Shown: piece by piece, positions 4,264 through 44,661 of the stretch
Layout: every line of letters begins with the position of its first letter
Numbering within the stretch: the stretch's first letter is position 1
DNA from: Minisyncoccota bacterium
GTDB taxonomy: Bacteria; Patescibacteriota; Minisyncoccia; Phycocordibacterales; UBA9973
Direction of reading: 5' to 3'
DNA: 64,000 bases
Assembly: GCA_036169735.1 (NCBI GenBank)
Contig: JAVHNX010000036.1
Coordinates: 13,681 to 77,680, forward strand
Program-made: the position numbers and the translations under genes
Notes under the pieces: generated by a model
What the model saw: only the letters and a program-made list of their open reading frames with translations
Database searches by the model: none
What the model was told of the DNA's origin: nothing

Positions 4264-4345
4264 TATAAACATTGTGCCGGGAGGGAGACTCGAACTCCCA
4301 AGGGTTGCCCCACTAGTTCCTAAGACTAGCGCGTATACCAATTCC
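4264..4345 (-). tRNA. tRNA-Leu (anticodon TAG)
   Basis: Cloverleaf in reverse complement: acceptor GCCGGGA/TCCCGGC, anticodon stem-loop CTAGT-CTTAGGA-ACTAG, long variable arm, T-arm GGGAGTTCGAGTCTCCC. No encoded CCA. Confidence 0.85.
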
Positions 4346-4434
4346 GCCATCCCGGCATTTTTTCGATTACTATATAGAATAGCTTTCTTTTGATAATAAA
4401 TCAAACACGAGAGTAAGAAAAAATTTTTTAAATG

Positions 4435-4488
4435 CACACATAAAATTCTGCTGAATTTTTGCTCTGCTCGGCTCGTCAGCCTGCGCAA
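4435..4488 (-). repeat. Conserved ~55-nt element (copy 1) in tRNA-Lys/tRNA-Leu spacer, homologous to mnmA leader element
   Basis: Minus-strand TTGCGCAGGCTGACGAGCCGAGCAGAGCAAAAATTCAGCAGAATTTTATGTGTG is about 85 percent identical to 28823-28877. Small hairpin ggct-gacg-agcc versus ggcc-gaccg-ggcc shows a compensatory change. The spacer is bracketed by cacacgagag...ctctcgtgt. Confidence 0.5.
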
Positions 4489-4521
4489 GGCATTTTAAAA
4501 ACATTTTCTTTCTCTCGTGTG

Positions 4522-4595
4522 TGCACCCAGGAGGGATCGAACCTCCGACATTCTCCTTAAGAGGGAGCTACTCTACCAGCTGAGTTATGGGTGCA
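4522..4595 (-). tRNA. tRNA-Lys (anticodon CTT)
   Basis: Reverse complement GCACCCATAACTCAGCTGGTAGAGTAGCTCCCTCTTAAGGAGAATGTCGGAGGTTCGATCCCTCCTGGGTGCA; anticodon loop CTCTTAA. Confidence 0.8.
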
Positions 4596-4659
4596 TAAAA
4601 ACAAATATAAAAACTTACTTTCTACTTTAACATATTTATTTTATTTTCAATATGTCTTG

Positions 4660-4741
4660 TGCCCGGAGTGGGGGTCGAACCCACATCCCTTGCGAGACAC
4701 GATTTTAAGTCGTGCGCGTATACCAATTCCGCCATCCGGGC
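4660..4741 (-). tRNA. tRNA-Leu (anticodon TAA)
   Basis: Reverse complement has acceptor GCCCGGA/TCCGGGC, anticodon stem-loop CACGA-CTTAAAA-TCGTG, long variable arm, T-arm GGGTTCGACCCCC. Confidence 0.85.
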
Positions 4742-4782
4742 AAATTATAATTTAATATGATTCTTTTTTCAAATTACACTTG

Positions 4783-4855
4783 AGGCCTGGGGCGGAATCG
4801 AACCGCCGTATATTCCTTTTGCAGAGGAATGCCTTACCACTTGGCTACCAGGCCG
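4783..4855 (-). tRNA. tRNA-Cys (anticodon GCA)
   Basis: Reverse complement GGCCTGGTAGCCAAGTGGTAAGGCATTCCTCTGCAAAAGGAATATACGGCGGTTCGATTCCGCCCCAGGCCT; anticodon loop CTGCAAA; discriminator U. Confidence 0.85.
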
Positions 4856-12811: not shown

Positions 12812-12848
12812 ATATTGACTTTAGGTCAATTTATGTTATCATTTTAGT

Positions 12849-13406
12849 ATGATAATACCAGTAACAATACCGCCGACAATGCCTTATAACGTACCGTTAT
12901 ATTCCCAAATAAGTGATATTTCATCTGTTGCATGGAAGCAAAAAGGCTGCGGAGTAGCAGACCTTGCAATGATAATTGAATACTATAAACCCAACACAAC
13001 CTCAGTTCAAAAGGTTCTTGAGGAAGGTATTGCTGGAGGTGCTTACCAAAAGAACGTAGGGTGGAAACATGACGGGCTGGCAGCCTTGGCTGTAAAACAC
13101 GGCCTAGTCGGTAGAACTTTTGATTTTTCAAAACTAGACAAAAAGAGTGCCTTTATTGAGTTTCAAGATATTATAAAAGAGGGTCCTGCTGTGGCATCAA
13201 TTCATCATGGTTTTAATCCTAAAAGTCCGTATGGTCACCTTGTTGTCGTAACTGGTTTTGACGAAGATTTTATTTATTACAACGATCCAGGAAAACATGA
13301 TGGTATCAGAAAAGTATCAGTTACAGATTTTATGAAGGGTTGGAAGAAAAGACTTATTGTTGTAAGACCTCCTGAAACAAAAATACAAGTAGCATTAGCG
13401 CGTTAA
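12849..13406 (+). CDS. Peptidase C39-like (papain-fold) domain protein
   Basis: Catalytic Cys context KQKGCGVADLAMII and His context SPYGHLVVVTGFDED match the Peptidase_C39_2-type pattern; about 185 aa. Confidence 0.5.
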   Translation: MIIPVTIPPTMPYNVPLYSQISDISSVAWKQKGCGVADLAMIIEYYKPNTTSVQKVLEEGIAGGAYQKNVGWKHDGLAALAVKHGLVGRTFDFSKLDKKSAFIEFQDIIKEGPAVASIHHGFNPKSPYGHLVVVTGFDEDFIYYNDPGKHDGIRKVSVTDFMKGWKKRLIVVRPPETKIQVALAR

Positions 13407-20619: not shown

Positions 20620-21258
20620 TTAATCATCCAGTTCTTTATTTCCCTCTATTTTATCTTTAGGATTTTTATTTGATTCTGGTTTATCTTCTATTATTTTTTT
20701 AGTTTCATTTTCTATTTCTGGTTTATCTAACTTTAGAAGGACGCTGTTTATTTTTTGGGTTGTTGATTCAGTGTTGATATTTACGGAATTGTTTATTTTT
20801 GAAATGGCGTCAAGATTATTTTTCAGCTCGTCTCCCATTTGAGCTTTTTTTGTTTTATCCAACTTTCCAGTCAAAGATAGGGCTTGTATTTCAGCCAGAC
20901 GCCTGTCTACTATTTTTTTATGCCAGGCGATTTTGGCTTCAGGAGAAAACTGGAGAGCGGATATTATTTTTTCATTTATATTTATCTTAATAGGATGGAG
21001 TATATCTCCAGGTAGAGATTTCTCAGCGGCAAAAGCGAGTGCACCTCCTCCAAAAATAACAATCAGGCAGGCGGCAATCAACGATTTTCTAAGAGTCAAA
21101 AAATGTGACTTGAACAAATAAGGTGAAGGTGTGCTTGCCATGGGTGAAGAAAAAATAAAAGAAGATAAATTTGAACGGATAAAAATCATTTCCCTTTCGG
21201 TAATTGTTATTTTTTTTAACTTATTTATAAGTTGTTTAATCTGTTTGTCCATTTTCAT
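20620..21258 (-). CDS. Putative anti-sigma factor (single-pass membrane protein)
   Basis: Directly downstream of and overlapping the ECF sigma gene; central TM helix LIAACLIVIFGGGALAFAA; no recognizable enzymatic motifs. Confidence 0.35.
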   Translation of the reverse strand: MKMDKQIKQLINKLKKITITEREMIFIRSNLSSFIFSSPMASTPSPYLFKSHFLTLRKSLIAACLIVIFGGGALAFAAEKSLPGDILHPIKININEKIISALQFSPEAKIAWHKKIVDRRLAEIQALSLTGKLDKTKKAQMGDELKNNLDAISKINNSVNINTESTTQKINSVLLKLDKPEIENETKKIIEDKPESNKNPKDKIEGNKELDD

Positions 21259-21760
21259 TTAAAATAATTTTTAATTTTTCCAATCCTCTGTGAATTCTTA
21301 CGGAAACATTGTTTTCAGTCTCGTTTGTTATTTTTGCTATTTCTTTAATTGATAAATCTTCTACATATCGTAAAGTTATGATTTCGCTGTATTTTTCTTC
21401 AAGTTTTTTTATAGTTTCGAGTGCCTTCTCTCCTTCAAAGATCATTTCTATTTCTTCCTTCAAATCTTTTTCGTTAGCAAAGTCAAAACCGTCATCAATC
21501 ATTTTGTCTAATGAAAAGTCTTTTTTCTTTCGTCTGTCATCTATCACCGTATTTCTTGCGACTTGATACAAAAAAGCTTTTACATGCTCGATTTTATTTT
21601 CACCGGAAGACATATATGTCCAGACTTTTATAAAAGTATTTTGCGCTATATCCTTTGCTTTTTCTCGATCACTCGTTTGGAAATAGCAATAGCGGAAGAT
21701 TGCGTCTGCATACTCATCGTATATTTTCAAGAATTTTTCTTCTGATTTTTTGATGTCCAT
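21236..21760 (-). CDS. ECF-type RNA polymerase sigma factor (sigma-70 family group 4)
   Basis: Region 2 (IAQNTFIKVWTYM...FLYQVARNTVID) and region 4 (ITLRYVEDLSIKEIAKITNETENNVSVRIHRGLEKLK). Confidence 0.75.
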   Translation of the reverse strand: MDIKKSEEKFLKIYDEYADAIFRYCYFQTSDREKAKDIAQNTFIKVWTYMSSGENKIEHVKAFLYQVARNTVIDDRRKKKDFSLDKMIDDGFDFANEKDLKEEIEMIFEGEKALETIKKLEEKYSEIITLRYVEDLSIKEIAKITNETENNVSVRIHRGLEKLKIILNENGQTD

Positions 21761-21944: not shown

Positions 21945-22748
21945 ATGAAAAAATATATAAGTACTCTGTTTTTAGTTGGTTTTCTTATGGTTCCAGGATT
22001 ATCCTTTGCTCAACAGGCAGATGTAAATCCTGCAGGAACATCTGCCTGTGCAGATATTAATGCAAATATAGGCTTTGGTAATCGTGATAGTGATGTAAAT
22101 AGTAATGCCGTATCAATGCTTCAAGATTTTCTAAGTACCAGTGGATTTTTAACAGCTACTCCAAGTGGTTACTTCGGTAGTGCCACATTGAAAGCAATTA
22201 AAGCTTTTCAAGCAGCCAATGGTATAAGTCCAACAGGCTATGTTGGTGCTCTTACTCGTGCAAAGATTAAAGACATTGATTGTAATGGTGGAACTGCAGG
22301 TACAGCACCAGCTAGTCCAATTCAACAACCGGTATCTCCAACAGTAGATAATTCATCGGTAAATAATCCTGCAACAGTTAATCCAGTAGTTCCTAATTTA
22401 TCTGTGAATCCTCTTATCAAAGGTGAAAGTGAAAATAGTAGTGTAAACAAAGGTGAAAGTGAAAGTGAAAATAGTAGTGTAAGTAAAAATGAAAATGAAA
22501 GTGAAAATAGTAGTGTAAGTAAAAATGAAAATGAAGGTGAAAATAGTAGTGTAAACAAAGGTGAAGGTGAAAATAGTAATGCAAACGGAAACAATGCTGA
22601 TTGTTCAGCGGGTGATAAATTTAGTTCAAAAACAGGACAATTATGTTCTAGTATAGCTCCTGTTGTGTATCCAGAAGGTTGTAATGCAAATTTTGCTTTC
22701 AGTCCAGTAACAGGAAAGTCATGTTCTGTTACTAGTTCAACACAATAA
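21945..22748 (+). CDS. Secreted protein with peptidoglycan-binding (PG_binding_1-like) domain and acidic Ser/Glu/Asn tandem repeats
   Basis: Signal peptide; DVNSNAVSMLQDFLSTSGFLTATPSGYFGSATLKAIKAFQAANGISPTGYVGALTRAKI resembles the PG-binding helical repeat; repeat region NSSVNKGESE x about 5; Cys-rich C-terminal end. Confidence 0.5.
   Translation: MKKYISTLFLVGFLMVPGLSFAQQADVNPAGTSACADINANIGFGNRDSDVNSNAVSMLQDFLSTSGFLTATPSGYFGSATLKAIKAFQAANGISPTGYVGALTRAKIKDIDCNGGTAGTAPASPIQQPVSPTVDNSSVNNPATVNPVVPNLSVNPLIKGESENSSVNKGESESENSSVSKNENESENSSVSKNENEGENSSVNKGEGENSNANGNNADCSAGDKFSSKTGQLCSSIAPVVYPEGCNANFAFSPVTGKSCSVTSSTQ
22422..22592 (+). repeat. Coding tandem repeat (30-39-nt units)
   Basis: Repeated gaaaatagtagtgtaa(ac/gt)aaa...gaaagtgaa units encoding NSSV(N/S)K(G/N)E(S/N)E. 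Confidence 0.7.
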
Positions 22749-24722: not shown

Positions 24723-24838
24723 ATTTATTTCATTTATGTTAAGTCAAAATTTGACATTGTTAAAAATAAGTGTAATATGTATATGTAACTAAAATTTAAC
24801 CAAAATACTATTTATTATTAAAATTCTTTTTAAAGATT

Positions 24839-25867
24839 ATGTCAACAATATCATTTAAACCAAAACAAGTAACAAAGAAAATAACTTCACATCTTCAGGA
24901 TCGTGCGAGCGATGTTATAATGAATCGTTTTGGTTTGACTACTGATGCTCAACGTAAAACTCTAGAAGAAATCGGTAAGAAATACAGTATCACACGAGAA
25001 CGTGTTCGACAGATTGAAGATGCCGCTTTGGCTTCAATCAAGAAATCTGATGCTTATAAAGCAGAACAGGTTACTTTTGATGAGATAAAACAATTGATTC
25101 ATTCTCTTGGTTCAATCGTTGCTGAACATGAATTCTTATCTTCAATATCAAAAGATAAAGCTACCCAGAACCATATTCATTTTTATATGGTTTTAGGTGA
25201 TTCCTTCAAAAAACATCGTGAAGATGATCATTTCCAAACACGTTGGAGTATTGACGATGAAATGGCTTCTAAAGTCCATGATTCTCTAAAAAAACTTTAC
25301 TCAAGTTTGAGTGACTCAGATCTTGTTCCTGAAACTGAAATGATTAAAAAGTTTTTTGATCAAATGAAAGATGTTTCTGAACAGTTCAAAAATGAAGAGA
25401 TGGCAAAAAGATGGTTAACTATTTCAAAAACTATTTCTAAGAATCCTCTTGGAGAGTGGGGAAAATCAACATCACCAAATATTCATACTCGTGGAGTAAA
25501 AGATTATGCCTTTTTAGTAATGAGAAAACATGGAAACCCTATGCACTTCCGTGAAGTAGCTGATTCTATTTCTAAAACTTTTGGAAGAAAGACTCACTAC
25601 GCAACTTGTCATAATGAACTTATTAAAGACCCTCGTTTTGTCCTCGTTGGACGTGGAATGTATGCTCTTGCAGAATGGGGCTATAAAACAGGAATTGCAC
25701 GTGAAGTTATTCGTGATATTCTAAAAAGAGAAGGACCACTTTCTAAAGAAGATGTAGTAGAAAGAGTAATGAAAGAAAGATATTTTAAAAAGAATACTAT
25801 TTTAGTAAATCTACAGAACCCAAAATACTTCAAGAAGAACAAAAACGGACTTTATACTTTAGCTTAA
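24839..25867 (+). CDS. Putative transcription factor: sigma-70 region-4-like HTH (N-terminal) plus HARE-HTH-like winged helix (C-terminal)
   Basis: N-terminus EEIGKKYSITRERVRQIEDAALASIKK resembles the sigma region 4.2 signature. C-terminus PMHFREVADSISKTF...IKDPRFVLVGRGMYALAEWGY matches the HARE-HTH pattern known from RNAP delta subunit N-termini. Confidence 0.45.
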   Translation: MSTISFKPKQVTKKITSHLQDRASDVIMNRFGLTTDAQRKTLEEIGKKYSITRERVRQIEDAALASIKKSDAYKAEQVTFDEIKQLIHSLGSIVAEHEFLSSISKDKATQNHIHFYMVLGDSFKKHREDDHFQTRWSIDDEMASKVHDSLKKLYSSLSDSDLVPETEMIKKFFDQMKDVSEQFKNEEMAKRWLTISKTISKNPLGEWGKSTSPNIHTRGVKDYAFLVMRKHGNPMHFREVADSISKTFGRKTHYATCHNELIKDPRFVLVGRGMYALAEWGYKTGIAREVIRDILKREGPLSKEDVVERVMKERYFKKNTILVNLQNPKYFKKNKNGLYTLA

Positions 25868-40519: not shown

Positions 40520-42436
40520 ATGGCAAAAATAATAGGAATAGACTTAGGTACAACAAACTCAGCGGTCGCTATCATCGAAGGTGGTGCGCCAAAAATAATA
40601 GAAAATATTGAAGGTGCTCGTACGACTCCTTCGGTAGTTTCTGTTGCAAAAAATGGAGACAGACTTGTCGGTCTTTTAGCAAAAAGACAAGCGGTCACAA
40701 ATCCTGAAAATACCATCTATGGTATCAAGCGTTTTATGGGTCACAATTTTGAAGATCCAGAAGTACAGAAAGATTTAAAGAATGCTTCTTTTAAAATTCA
40801 GAAAGGTGCAAATGGTGGAGTAGAAGTTAAAATTGGAGATAAGTGGATGCGTCCAGAAGAAATTTCTGCGATGATTCTTTCTAAAATTAAAACAGACGTG
40901 GAAGCAAAGATCGGTGAGAAGATCACTGAAGCGATTATTACTGTACCTGCATATTTTAATGACACACAAAGACAAGCAACTATTGATGCGGGTAAAATTG
41001 CTGGCCTGACTGTAAAAAGAATTATCAATGAACCGACAGCTGCAGCATTGGCTTATGGTTTGAACTCAAAGAAAAATGAAAAGATTGTAGTCTACGATTT
41101 CGGAGGCGGAACAACTGATATCTCTGTTCTTGAAGTTGGTGATGATGTTATCGAAGTTAAATCTACTGATGGTGACAGTCACCTTGGTGGACGTGATATC
41201 GATCACAAAATTATAAATTGGATTGCTGACGAATTTAAAAAGACTTCCGGTGTAGATGTAAGAACTGATGCATTGGCATTGCAGCGTCTTGATGAAGCTG
41301 CAGAAAAAGCAAAAATCGAACTCTCAACAGCTATCGAAACTGAAATAAATATTCCTTTCATTACTTCCACCGCAGCTGGCCCTCAGCACTTGTTGTTGAA
41401 AATGACTCGTGCTCAATTGGAGTCTATCGCTGACGAATATATCACTCGTTCAATAGATATTGCAAAGCGTGCAGTTGCAGCTTCTGGTTTTAAAATCGAA
41501 GAAATAAACGAAATCATAATGGTCGGAGGACAAACCAGAATGCCAAAAATTGTCGAAGAAATAAAGAAACTATTTGGTAAAACTCCAAACCTTACAATCA
41601 ATCCTGATGAAGTTGTTGCTCTTGGTGCTGCTGTTCAAGCAGGAGTATTGCAAGGTGATGTGCGTGATGTCCTTCTTCTTGATGTTATTCCTCTTTCCTT
41701 GGGTATTGAAACACTTGGAGGAGTTGCGACAAAACTTGTAGAAAGAAACACAACTATCCCTTCTTCAAAGTCACAAACATTTTCAACTGCAGCTGACAAT
41801 CAGACTTCTGTCGAAATACACATCGTGCAAGGTGAACGTCCAATGGCTTCCGATAACAAATCTCTAGGAAGATTTATCTTAGACGGTGTTCCTCCAGCTC
41901 CTCGTGGTATGCCACAAGTTGAAGTAACTTTCGATGTTGATGCCAATGGTATTTTGAATGTTACTGCGAAAGAAAAAACTAGTGGTAAAACTCAGACTAT
42001 CAGAATCGAAGCTAGTTCTGGGTTGAAACCTGAAGATATCAAAAAAATGCAAGAAGATGCAGAGCTTCATGCTGATGAAGATAAAAAGAAAAAAGAAGTC
42101 GCTGATGCAAAGAACACAGCTGACATGACTATCTTTACTGCAGAGAAAGCATTAAAAGATAATGAAGGAAAAATTTCAGAAGAAACAAAGAAAGGTGTTG
42201 AAGAAAAAATAACAGCATTGCGTGGAGTAAAAGAAGGTTCAGACATAGAGGCAATAAAGAAATCTATAGATGAACTTTCCAGTGAAATGTCTAAAATTGG
42301 TGAAGAAATGGTAAAAGCATCTTCCAAAGTAGATGATGCTGGTGCACCACCAGTAGAGCCAAAAGAAGAAGCTTCTACTCATGAAGCTGGTTCTAAGGAA
42401 GGTGAAACTCCATCCGCTGACGAAGCTGCAAAATAA
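40520..42436 (+). CDS. dnaK: Chaperone DnaK (Hsp70)
   Basis: [18 protein letters not shown] equivalent ([13 protein letters not shown]), substrate-binding domain and acidic C-terminal lid; 638 aa. Confidence 0.95.
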
Positions 42437-42546
42437 TATAAATATTGCGAAGGACAGTCTTCCGTAGAAAGTAAAAATCCTCTCCGACTTTGGTTGTAGG
42501 GAATTTTTACTTTCACCTATTTTTAATTTTTGCTATAATTCATTTT

Positions 42547-44661
42547 ATGGAGAATCCTAAAATACCAATCAATAAAGATATGACATATATAGGTCAGACG
42601 ACCTTTAGAGATAAGAATCAGATCTTTGGTATGAAGCGCAGAGATAGACGTCAGCACGTATATGTTCTTGGAAAATCTGGTACTGGTAAATCTGTGCTAC
42701 TTTCCAATATGATTGTTCAGAACATTCAAAACGGAGATGGTGTTTGCGTTGTTGATCCTCACGGAGAATTAGTTGAAAGTGTTTTACAATCTATTCCAAC
42801 TGACCGTATCAAAGATGTTATTTATTTCAACCCAGCTGATACGGATTACCATATAGGCTTTAATGTTATTGAAATTCTAGATCCAAAATATAAACATTTG
42901 GTGGCTTCAGGCTTGATGGGAATTTTCACTAAGATCTGGGCAAATGCTTGGTCTGCTCGTATGGAATATATTTTAAATAATACAATCTTGGCATTGTTGG
43001 ATACTCCAGGTTCGACTCTTCTTGGTATTCCAAGAATGTTAGTGGACAAAGAATATCGCAAAAAAATAATTGAAAATTTAAAGGATCCAGTCATTAAAGC
43101 TTTTTGGATACATGAGTACGAAGCTTGGAATGAAAAATTTAGAAATGAAGCTATTGCTCCGATTCAGAACAAAGTTGGACAATTTCTTTCTTCTTCTATC
43201 ATTAGAAATGTTGTAGGTCAATCAATGAGTACCATTAATGTTTTTGATATCATGAATGAAGGTAAAATTTTCTTGGTGAACGTTTCCAAGGGACGTATTG
43301 GTGAAGATAATTCCGCATTGCTTGGAGGTATGATTATTACCAAGATCCAGCTCGCTGCAATGGAGCGTGTGCGTATTCCTGAAGATGAAAGAAAAGACTT
43401 TTATTTATATGTCGACGAGTTCCAGAACTTCGTGACTGATTCTTTTGCCAGTATTTTGTCTGAAGCTCGAAAATACCGATTGAATCTAACTGTTGCTCAC
43501 CAGTACACAGCTCAGCTCGTGATTGATGGGTCTTCGGCAGTGCGTGACGCTGTCTTCGGCAACGTCGGTACGATGATTGTATTTCGAGTGGGTGCTGATG
43601 ATGCACTCTTTTTGGAAAAAGAATTTGAACCAGAATTCACTCCACAGGATATCGTGAACTTGCCGAACTATCGTATTTATTTACGTTTGATGATTGATGG
43701 TATTGGTTCACGTCCATTTTCTGCAAAGACTTTGCCTCCAATAGCAAAAAATCCAGATACTCAAGTTGAAGATAAAGTTATCAGTATGTCTCGCGCACTT
43801 TACTGTAAAAAGAAAGAAGTAGTTGAACAAGAAATAAATGATTGGAGTGGTATGTCTATCGGGAATATTGTCAGTACCAGTCCTATTAGTAATGTTGAAA
43901 AATTCCCAGCTGTTTGTTCTAATTGTAAAAAGGAAACTTCAGTACCATTTAAGCCTGAACCAGGACGACCGATTTATTGTAAGGATTGTATTGCAAAAAT
44001 AAAATCTGGAGAAATAAAGCCACTTCCACAACCAGCTCCTGTTAAAGAACCAATAAATGAAGTTAAAGTAGAACCAGTAAAGTCTGGAATTCTTTCAACA
44101 CTTACAAAAGTTTTAAAACCCATTATTCCGATTATTCCTATTCGTGCTCCATCAGAAATTAAGCGAAATGATTCTGTAGAATCAAAAGCTTTTACTAAAG
44201 CTCCGACTGTTCCTGTTGTTTCAGTGCCTCCAGTTCAAAAAGAAGCCCCAAGGCCATTTATTACTCGTCCTATACCAGCCCCAGTAAAACCTACAGAAAA
44301 TACAGCTTTGAGAGATATTTTAAATAAGACTTTGTCTGAGAGTAAAGTTCTTGAGAAACTTATTGTAGTACCAGAGGTAAAAGAAATTAAAATTCCCGTA
44401 CCACCTCCTGCAATGTCATTGAGTGATTTAAAAAGAACAAATCCTATATCAACAAATTCTCTAAATAATAATGATAGATCTGCAAGTGCTGAAGATATGA
44501 ATAAACTTAAAAACTTTATTTTTGAAAAAGTACCCACAGTATCACAAGAAAAAAAAGTTGAGCCGGTGAGCGAGGAAGTAAAAAAAGAAATTCCAGTCCC
44601 AACACCTCCAAAAAATATAAAAGAAGTGCCTGAAGATGTGTTAAAGAAGATTTTAGAATAG
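42547..44661 (+). CDS. FtsK/HerA-superfamily P-loop ATPase related to T4SS coupling proteins (TraG/VirD4/TraD-like), with C-terminal zinc ribbon and Pro-rich tail
   Basis: Walker A VLGKSGTGKS, VVDPHGE, Walker B LYVDEFQNF, ARKYRLNLTVAHQYTAQL (T4CP/HerA arginine-finger region). CSNCKK...YCKDC zinc ribbon, then PxP-rich low-complexity tail. No N-terminal TM. Start set at the second Met (MENPK) after the -10 TATAAT at 42533. Confidence 0.5.
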   Translation: MENPKIPINKDMTYIGQTTFRDKNQIFGMKRRDRRQHVYVLGKSGTGKSVLLSNMIVQNIQNGDGVCVVDPHGELVESVLQSIPTDRIKDVIYFNPADTDYHIGFNVIEILDPKYKHLVASGLMGIFTKIWANAWSARMEYILNNTILALLDTPGSTLLGIPRMLVDKEYRKKIIENLKDPVIKAFWIHEYEAWNEKFRNEAIAPIQNKVGQFLSSSIIRNVVGQSMSTINVFDIMNEGKIFLVNVSKGRIGEDNSALLGGMIITKIQLAAMERVRIPEDERKDFYLYVDEFQNFVTDSFASILSEARKYRLNLTVAHQYTAQLVIDGSSAVRDAVFGNVGTMIVFRVGADDALFLEKEFEPEFTPQDIVNLPNYRIYLRLMIDGIGSRPFSAKTLPPIAKNPDTQVEDKVISMSRALYCKKKEVVEQEINDWSGMSIGNIVSTSPISNVEKFPAVCSNCKKETSVPFKPEPGRPIYCKDCIAKIKSGEIKPLPQPAPVKEPINEVKVEPVKSGILSTLTKVLKPIIPIIPIRAPSEIKRNDSVESKAFTKAPTVPVVSVPPVQKEAPRPFITRPIPAPVKPTENTALRDILNKTLSESKVLEKLIVVPEVKEIKIPVPPPAMSLSDLKRTNPISTNSLNNNDRSASAEDMNKLKNFIFEKVPTVSQEKKVEPVSEEVKKEIPVPTPPKNIKEVPEDVLKKILE

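Follow-up and report, generated by a model that had tools for sequence, protein, structure and literature searches.

The gene under study encodes a protein of 342 amino acids and lies on the forward strand of the window, by which we mean the whole stretch of 64,000 nucleotides analysed here (Table 1). Pfam searches assigned Sigma70_r4 to residues 18-69 (46.8 bits against a cut-off of 24.1) and HARE-HTH to residues 220-280 (39.4 bits against a cut-off of 25.9). A sequence-only reading of the locus had claimed this pair, an N-terminal likeness to sigma region 4.2 and a C-terminal HARE-HTH signature, and the strings that it quoted, ITRERVRQIE and PMHFREV, are both present in the open reading frame. 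It had suggested profile searches and structure prediction as checks, and these recovered both domains together with a winged-helix fold. Its statement that sigma regions 2 and 3 are absent was also borne out, as neither was seen in Pfam searches, including Sigma70_r2 (PF04542), even at E<=10, and region 4 is followed by winged helices in the structural model described below.

Table 1. Features of the locus; positions are those of the window and residue numbers those of the 342-aa protein.
Feature	Position	Strand	Basis and remarks
Promoter-like site, TTGACA-16-TAATAT	24751..24778	+	Consensus scan and sequence; start codon 61 bp downstream
Whole gene, sigma-region-4/four-winged-helix protein, 342 aa	24839..25867	+	ORF, Pfam, AlphaFold2 model; stop codon 25865-25867
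Module 1, residues 1-72, sigma-70 region 4	24839..25054	+	Helices 8-16, 21-30, 42-49, 53-69
Recognition helix T52-E60, TRERVRQIE	24992..25018	+	Aligns with E. coli sigma70 T583-E591
Module 2, residues 73-139, winged-helix-like wH1	25055..25255	+	Model: helix 77-89, strand 93-95, helices 96-103 and 107-119, strands 124-126 and 135-137
Module 3, residues 140-212, winged-helix-like wH2	25256..25474	+	Secondary structure of model
Module 4, residues 213-284, HARE-HTH winged helix	25475..25690	+	Pfam and model
Module 5, residues 285-342, basic C-terminal winged helix wH4	25691..25864	+	Secondary structure of model
DUF8128 membrane protein, 417 aa	26062..27315	+	N-terminal transmembrane helix and VirB4-N-terminal-like domain; conserved downstream partner
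VirD4/TrwB/HerA-like ATPase, CxxC-x17-CxxC zinc finger	42490..44661	+	Pfam TrwB_AAD_bind, DUF87, TraG-D_C, zf_Tbcl_2

The NCBIfam sigma models aligned to the protein solely via their last ~60 positions, and it stayed far under every curated sigma cut-off, the best score being 54.2 bits against 555 for RpoD. Scores of ~54 bits thus face sigma cut-offs of 350-550, and the generic sigma model TIGR02937 gave 22.2 bits against 42.9. The best-scoring models for the region-4 module are RpoD-type, matches of the protein to PDB sequences are limited to region 4 of SigA/HrdB/RpoD, and we regard this helix-turn-helix as having its origin in a primary (group 1) sigma factor. The protein itself is no sigma factor. 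That it might be a genuine alternative one, as the PROKKA name 'RpoS' has it, is suggested by the region-4 similarity and the database names only. This reading is already refuted by the absence of region 2 (core binding and -10 recognition) in Pfam, NCBIfam and the structure, where region 3 is missing too; the scores just given, the complete separate RpoD in Southlakia and the separate sigma beside the family member in the related locus L082 also speak against it, and we regard its chance as negligible. A split sigma factor, with region 4 supplied in trans, was rejected as well, since the Southlakia RpoD has a region 4 of its own and the sigma of L082 carries both r2 and r4. The delta-subunit model TIGR04567 matched residues 222-287 with 26.9 bits, under its equivalog cut-off of 42. 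Judged from these searches, the HARE module is homologous to the delta domain, yet the protein is no delta ortholog. No significant match to the PDB was obtained with the HARE module and wH4 as a single-sequence query.

Structure and conservation of the five modules

The AlphaFold2 model of the 342-aa protein, made from an alignment with 87 diverse relatives, has a pLDDT of 96.7 and a pTM of 0.87, with no stretch below pLDDT 50 and no disordered segment. In this model, sigma region 4 is followed by four related winged helices, of which the third is the HARE-HTH, with units of winged-helix topology at about residues 77-137, 140-209, 220-277 (HARE-HTH) and 287-341. The HARE module shows the winged-helix fold with helices at 220-231, 237-248 and 254-263 and a wing at strands 267-269/274-277. 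Comparison of the modules by hhalign gave probabilities of 81% for wH1 against wH2, 88% for wH2 against wH4 and 79% for wH4 against the HARE module. The net charge is +15 for the whole protein and +6, +6 and +7 for the sigma4, HARE and wH4 modules, each of which stays at +5 to +7 across the family; wH1, slightly acidic, and wH2 are neutral or acidic. Mean identity by module is 41% for sigma4, 23% for wH1, 22% for wH2, 54.5% for HARE, which is thus the most conserved, and 44% for wH4.

Conservation in the recognition helix is strict. Among the 87 relatives, which are of 33-53% identity, R53, E54, R55, R57 and Q58 are invariant and T52, V56 and I59 are >=90% conserved, and R30, T41 and L42 are invariant as well. 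According to the alignment with E. coli sigma70 PDB chains (query 11-68 to sigma70 543-599), R53, E54, R57 and Q58 align with sigma70 R584, E585, R588 and Q589, and R30, T41 and L42 with R562, T572 and L573. We take these sigma70 positions to be contacts of the -35 element, going by the complex of Taq sigmaA region 4 with -35 DNA (1ku7), a structure that is among the Foldseek matches of our model. Their invariance, together with the RpoD-type best scores, is in favour of a protein that would bind DNA of the -35 type. The basic character of the sigma4, HARE and wH4 modules and the absence of the acidic tail of delta likewise point to DNA binding. In the 87-sequence alignment, invariant residues of the HARE module are H236/F237, H258/N259/L261 and G271-R272-G273-Y275, and those of wH4 include T320 and F331. 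In the model, H258/N259 sit in the recognition helix of the HARE module and G271-R272-G273 in its wing, a placing that would suit contacts with DNA; the HARE-HTH of ASXL1 binds duplex DNA carrying 6mA. The sequence-only reading had treated HARE-HTH as a binder of RNA polymerase. This is true of delta only: the ASXL1 domain binds modified DNA, the delta model was missed, and a basic winged helix here replaces the acidic tail.

When compared with Foldseek, the model aligned with chimeras of sigma4 and the beta flap tip over 111-114 columns (TM 0.73-0.75), as against ~60-75 columns for sigma4 alone. These alignment lengths, the sole source of the idea, hint that the next helix of the modelled protein may itself fill the flap-tip groove, letting sigma4 work without polymerase, and this hint is one of the points in favour of a free-standing factor. 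Helix 79-90 carries a conserved hydrophobic stripe. As a sign of flap-tip mimicry the stripe was discarded, for it equally fits ordinary core packing of wH1.

[quoted passage not shown] Such a subunit would accompany the core enzyme or the holoenzyme and tune promoter selectivity or sigma exchange. Sigma region 4 is a flap-binding domain by origin, the HARE module is homologous to the polymerase-binding domain of delta, and its rank as the most conserved module is what a contact with a conserved protein surface would produce; JGI calls some members 'RNA polymerase delta subunit', and the essentiality and TypA-like constraint described below would suit a polymerase subunit. The beta' jaw and the beta flap are, however, on opposite sides of the polymerase, and one compact body with a pTM of 0.87 is unlikely to fill both at once. 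The score of the delta model is too low for an equivalog, the working part of delta, a long acidic tail (-47), is absent from this strongly basic protein, and the Foldseek comparison hints at a flap groove that is self-occupied. We consider a polymerase subunit unlikely.

Family, gene order and essentiality

Relatives of the protein are numerous. The 120 best matches among at least 8000 candidates of a word-indexed search were 81-99% identical and 338-411 aa long, and all carried PF04545 and PF05066; the profile search for the family likewise gave at least 8000 matches. When representatives of clusters at 50% identity were searched exhaustively, 574 clusters reached E<=1e-30; of the best 150 among these 574, nearly all were colinear over 330-380 aa. 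Relatives are present in at least 467 species-representative genomes, and a contig of a Minisyncoccia MAG matches the window at 99% identity. The architecture had been called unusual, but it is catalogued in thousands of database entries, under conflicting names: RpoS (PROKKA), RNA polymerase delta subunit (JGI) and 'sigma factor-like helix-turn-helix DNA-binding protein' (PGAP). All named matches among those listed were Patescibacteria, including Nomura-, Niyogi-, Ryan-, Terry- and Pacebacteria. The suggested tie to one lineage accordingly appears to hold for the compact family of 340 aa, whose likely Southlakia counterpart has also been flagged as Patescibacteria-enriched, but not for the combination of sigma4 with HARE-HTH as such, which occurs in larger, defence-linked proteins outside this group. 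No experimental or descriptive literature on the sigma4/HARE-HTH family was found.

Two such larger proteins, both from non-CPR plasmids, combine sigma4 with similarity to the C-terminal part of the 342-aa protein. The first, of 568 aa from Abditibacteriota, is encoded directly upstream of an Eco57I/MmeI-type methylase, matches our protein at 3e-10 (sigma4) and 4e-13 (HARE and wH4), and has kept wH4 along with the HARE module. The second, of 1026 aa from Ruegeria, has Sigma70_r4 and a weak match to the HhH of the RNAP alpha-CTD and lies within a Dnd phosphorothioation locus; its match to the 342-aa protein spans 83% of the latter. These loci, the typical fusion of HARE-HTH domains to restriction endonucleases, for which discrimination of modified DNA has been proposed, and the binding of 6mA DNA by ASXL1 would fit a reader of DNA modification, in which the HARE-HTH senses modified bases within a restriction- or defence-like system. 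Our protein has no nuclease or methylase domain, and in PADLOC-DB v2 only its residues 15-69 matched, at 33 bits and to MzaA at its sigma4 end, while no defence model aligned with the greater part of the protein. Phage searches gave sigma4-only matches and no full-length homolog. A single copy in Southlakia, housekeeping synteny, slow evolution and essentiality are moreover the opposite of what defence genes display, and a modification reader is therefore very improbable.

The gene order TypA - 342-aa protein - 417-aa ORF - MltG is kept in 75-77 of 80 close relatives, most of which also keep the exonuclease and MnmA genes downstream. The gene stands directly upstream of the DUF8128 gene in 77 of the 80 close loci and in 10 of 11 informative deep lineages. 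In these deep lineages, whose proteins are 33-39% identical to ours, the upstream neighbours vary (SecD/SecF in five, FtsW, a DNA glycosylase), and after the DUF8128 gene there usually come one or two TrwB/VirD4/HerA-like ATPases with a zf_Tbcl_2 finger, often at gaps of 4-50 bp or with overlaps. The lineage L092 also has a fused DUF8128-ATPase protein. In the lineage of the window, the third member of this conserved triad lies 15 kb from the gene; the ATPase of the window scored 51.6 bits against NCBIfam TIGR04272 (cut-off 36). The VirB4-N-terminal-like fold of DUF8128 was obtained by structure prediction from database homologues. Two apparent Rosetta-stone fusions of the family were discarded: SecF joined to the protein (P0160) mirrors the frequent SecD-SecF order upstream of the gene and is probably gene-calling read-through, and AAA_14 joined to the C-terminal half (P0128) looks like a chimera and is uninformative.

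Median identity across 79 genomes was 81.0% for the 342-aa protein, 82.9% for TypA, 64.9% for MnmA, 60.8% for MltG, 57.5% for DUF8128 and 57.4% for the exonuclease. By this measure of sequence, its constraint is of housekeeping grade, like that of TypA, and this grade argues for a general factor.

A likely counterpart of known phenotype is SEML1_0294 of Southlakia epibionticum, a protein of 349 aa with PF04545 at 27-72 and PF05066 at 225-283, named 'RpoS' by PROKKA (Wang et al. 2023, Cell, Tables S1/S2, PMC10633639). The authors divided it at 156, 216 and 286 into domains called 'tri-helical, winged, winged, winged', and marked it both as Patescibacteria-enriched and as belonging to the 921 core families of Meheust et al.; PF05066 is found once in their Table S2, which makes it single-copy in Southlakia (PMC10633639). 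The main text of that paper does not mention SEML1_0294. In the Tn-seq data it is class I essential and essential at all three time points (ES/ES/ES), with 24 insertion sites in the input DNA and 1-2 recovered, while both flanking genes tolerate dozens of insertions (PMC10633639). The downstream gene SEML1_0293 is non-essential (NE) and encodes a T4CP-like protein of 921 aa with TrwB/TraG/HerA domains from about residue 361, and a separate complete RpoD with regions 1.2, 2, 3 and 4 is encoded by SEML1_0063 (PMC10633639). From architecture, size, domain boundaries and neighbourhood, rather than from a sequence alignment, we infer that SEML1_0294 is orthologous to the 342-aa protein. Both Pfam domains stand at the same positions in the two proteins, the boundaries are the same and a T4CP-like ATPase is encoded immediately downstream, although SEML1_0294 is from Saccharibacteria and our protein from a Paceibacteria-type lineage. 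That SEML1_0294 is essential while the adjacent T4CP-like ATPase gene is dispensable argues further for a general factor. The essentiality of SEML1_0294 could also come from repression of a toxic operon.

The gene order bears on a further explanation, namely that the protein is the dedicated partner of a membrane translocase, either as a DNA-recognition adaptor that loads DUF8128 and the VirD4/HerA-like ATPase or as an operon-specific regulator. TraM-TraD, the gamma domain of FtsK with KOPS, and those DndH HerA/FtsK proteins that contain a sigma-type HTH would be its analogues. The triad persists in 10 of 11 informative deep lineages although the genes upstream differ, SEML1_0294 and 0293 of Southlakia are adjacent in like manner, DUF8128 and ATPase are fused in L092 and probably in SEML1_0293, and DUF8128 has a VirB4-N-terminal-like fold. 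Sigma-related HTH domains are joined to HerA/FtsK pumps in DndH variants, and the non-CPR relatives adjoin DNA-modification and restriction genes. A purely global role does not explain such tight and deep conservation of the order. Synteny and the DndH precedent strongly favour a dedicated partner, which is, however, weakened by an essential protein of the same architecture in Southlakia beside a dispensable ATPase fusion, by the far slower evolution of the protein than of DUF8128 (81% vs 57.5%, a four-fold difference in divergence), and by the ATPase having moved 15 kb off in the lineage of the window. The recognition helix, frozen in the -35-reading state of sigmaA, in addition suggests many genomic targets and not one operator. 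We regard the dedicated partner as doubtful, though a serious contender. The three-gene module with its VirB4-like split ATPase gives context to many 'orphan' VirD4-like genes of CPR, for which a preprint on CPR type IV secretion reports 5,713 VirD4-like genes in 2,918 CPR genomes, 148 of them near virB4.

Promoters and the preferred reading

A near-consensus TTGAC-N17-19-TAWWWT promoter was found <=150 bp upstream of the ortholog of the gene in 56 of 77 genomes, whereas the same scan gave 0 of 60-64 for TypA, DUF8128, exonuclease and MnmA. Distant relatives have TTGAC(A) and an extended -10 upstream of the gene, and promoters of these organisms carry TTGACA with an extended -10. The TTGACA promoters of these organisms and the near-consensus promoter of the gene itself lend support to the -35 reading. 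As no terminator-like site was seen after the gene in the window, the gene with its near-consensus promoter appears to head a transcription unit.

In 23 genomes the promoter of the gene also contains a TTGAC-N5-GTYAA palindrome, one arm of which is the -35 hexamer. All 37 matches to this palindrome in 841 kb fall in the promoter of the gene (23 loci, 14 matches being reverse-strand reads of the same sites). The palindrome is missing from the window's own promoter of the gene and from the distant lineages, and it is not enriched in the window (4 matches vs 2.6 expected). Autoregulation through a TTGAC-N5-GTYAA operator was rejected on these grounds; given its absence from the window promoter and the distant lineages, autoregulation of this kind would at best be confined to one sub-clade.

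We tentatively rank first, with a probability of about 0.4, that the protein is a free-standing, general promoter-DNA-binding factor that reads hexamers of the -35 type. Such a factor would bind duplex DNA by itself, its sigma4 module reading TTGACA hexamers, its two basic and highly conserved C-terminal winged helices holding the neighbouring DNA and its two variable central winged helices serving as a scaffold. Occupancy of the -35 element by the protein would then set the access of the sigmaA holoenzyme to promoters, which would give the protein a general, housekeeping role in promoter occupancy in Patescibacteria. Among its targets would be the unusually consensus-like promoter of its own gene, from which the downstream VirB4-like translocase gene(s) may be transcribed as well. 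The DNA target, the independence from RNA polymerase, the competition with sigmaA and the autoregulation are what we infer from the evidence above. A bolder combination is a 'sigma4-delta hybrid', an essential and Patescibacteria-specific part of the transcription machinery that would be seated on -35 DNA or RNA polymerase and would tie promoters physically to the membrane-anchored, VirB4-like DUF8128/ATPase translocase of the neighbouring genes. This is a long shot; if true, transcription initiation would be linked, in a way not known before, with an ATPase for secretion or DNA translocation, and this in a radiation to which a large share of bacterial diversity belongs.

Patescibacteria (CPR) have very few recognisable transcription regulators, and in the literature searched no experimental work on their transcription control was found. 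The family is present in thousands of their genomes, changes as slowly as a translation GTPase and has kept a -35-reading module intact although it is no sigma factor, and a protein of like architecture is essential in the one species for which there is genetics. It therefore stands out as a strong candidate for the role of a general transcription factor specific to this lineage, and the analysis corrects the misleading database names RpoS and delta subunit.

Comparison with known systems

With the primary (group 1) sigma-70 factors, RpoD/SigA, the protein shares region 4. In the protein this module is N-terminal, regions 1.2, 2 and 3 are absent, and region 4 is followed by winged helices rather than by the end of the protein. 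Lacking these regions, it has no means of binding core polymerase or of melting the -10 element in the manner of a sigma factor. Delta (RpoE) of Firmicutes consists of a HARE-HTH and a polyanionic tail of ~80 residues (-47) that displaces nucleic acids, whereas our polycationic protein (+15) combines sigma4 with four winged helices, lacks a disordered tail and ends in a module of +7. Consecutive winged helices in one body also occur in UFL1-DDRGK1, Dcc1 and RPC62 of RNA polymerase III, the sole multi-domain Foldseek matches (E ~4e-4 to 4e-3). These are eukaryotic, have a TM of ~0.2 and no sequence relationship, and share the generic architecture alone.

Also close are the larger proteins with a sigma-type HTH and a HARE-HTH. 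Aravind and Iyer reportedly described such proteins in 2012, some with an HhH like that of the RNAP alpha-CTD, and predicted that they inhibit polymerase binding at start sites; the text of Pfam PF05066 is likewise said to describe HARE-HTH joined with the HhH of the alpha subunit and with HTHs of sigma region 3/4, with a predicted delta-like inhibition of polymerase binding. The Abditibacteriota and Ruegeria plasmid proteins fit these descriptions. The domain combination is real and already in databases, and its general kind was reportedly predicted in 2012. What the present analysis adds is the five-module structure, the invariance of the -35 residues, the TypA-grade constraint, the link to an essentiality hidden under the name 'RpoS', and the deep three-gene module. 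The larger proteins resemble ours in the order of sigma4, HARE-HTH and a C-terminal winged helix; they differ in their 570-1030 aa, their extra N-terminal regions and their location on plasmids beside Dnd or Eco57I/MmeI-type modification/restriction genes. The CPR family, in contrast, is compact (340 aa) and chromosomal, and the one member tested, identified by its architecture, is essential.

An inverted repeat in the promoters of target orthologs

Upstream of the target orthologs in 23 related genomes (loci within L003-L061), we identified an inverted repeat, TTGAC-N5-GT(C/T)AA, whose left arm is the -35 hexamer of the ortholog's promoter. The repeat is located 37-135 bp upstream of the gene, and across the 23 loci the arms are conserved and the N5 spacer is variable. 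When 841,591 bp were scanned, all 37 matches, including 14 reverse-strand reads of sites already counted, fell within the target-gene promoter. The repeat was present at 20 of the 56 promoter-like sites of the target gene, compared with none of the 50 promoter-like sites elsewhere. It was found neither in the window's own target promoter nor in the distant lineages. The repeat may be an operator belonging to one sub-clade, with the target protein itself perhaps as its ligand.

The only exact TTGAC-N5-GTCAA palindrome of the window (TTGACTTTAGGTCAA) lies 20 bp upstream of an ORF encoding a 185-aa product that weakly resembles C39 peptidase/bacteriocin-exporter N-terminal domains. Allowing up to one mismatch, the motif showed no enrichment in the window (four matches against 2.6 expected).

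Features of the window and of related loci (L-numbers)
Feature	Location	Strand	Remarks
tRNA genes Leu-TAG, Lys-CTT, Leu-TAA, Cys-GCA	window 4274-4854	-	four, clustered
Exact palindrome	window 12815-12829
ORF after palindrome	window 12849-13406		185 aa
DUF5667 protein	window 20620-21258	-	downstream of ECF-type sigma gene
ECF-type sigma factor	window 21236-21760	-	174 aa; Sigma70_r2 + r4_2
PG_binding_1 protein	window 21945-22748		secreted
DnaK	window 40520-42436
VirD4/TrwB/HerA-like ATPase	window 42490-44661		723 aa
Inverted repeat, example	L037 5921-5935
Inverted repeat, example	L039 5950-5964
Inverted repeat, example	L054 5920-5934
Sigma factor	L082 5167-6825	-	552 aa; Sigma70_r2 + Sigma70_r4; convergent with target homolog
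DUF8128-ATPase fusion	L092 791-3199		802 aa
Ruegeria relative	L089 3558-6638		plasmid NZ_CP045388
Abditibacteriota relative	L090 26-1732		plasmid AP024153; annotated 'rpoD'

Gene order around DUF8128 and the ATPase

In other lineages the homologous ATPase gene is located directly 3' of DUF8128; in the window it is 15 kb off, right after DnaK. Residues 470-504 of the window's ATPase make up a treble-clef zinc finger of the pattern CxxC-x17-CxxC (zf_Tbcl_2/TIGR04272). A paralogous protein in L092 carries DUF8128 and a DUF87/TrwB ATPase as a single chain, and its gene adjoins a separate target-DUF8128-ATPase triad. This fusion supports a physical complex of DUF8128 and the ATPase. In five deep lineages (L081, L084, L088, L091, and L093), SecD-SecF lies directly upstream of the target homolog, giving a wider conserved block, SecD-SecF-target-DUF8128-ATPase. 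The adjacency also explains the apparent 'SecF fusion' of protein P0160.

Sigma factors and variable genes

The ECF-type sigma and DUF5667 genes of the window overlap by 23 nt and probably encode a sigma/anti-sigma pair, which was seen in only two of the 80 related loci. In the secreted protein, PG_binding_1 precedes a low-complexity stretch of ENSSV(N/S)K(G/N)E(S/N)E repeats, and the C-terminus contains cysteine. This protein is variable, having been found at just one locus of the 80 related ones. The sigma factor of the distant lineage L082 is of unusual architecture; its C-terminal extension resembles the DnaA C-terminal HTH (PF08299, 27 bits, below the cut-off).

Non-CPR relatives in defence loci

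Two non-CPR proteins, from Ruegeria and Abditibacteriota, combine sigma4 with similarity to the C-terminal part of the target, and both have defence surroundings. The Ruegeria gene has dndE/cysteine desulfurase on one side and, on the other, a 'DNA phosphorothioation system restriction enzyme'; the Abditibacteriota gene lies directly 5' of a gene for a 1119-aa Eco57I/MmeI-type methylase.
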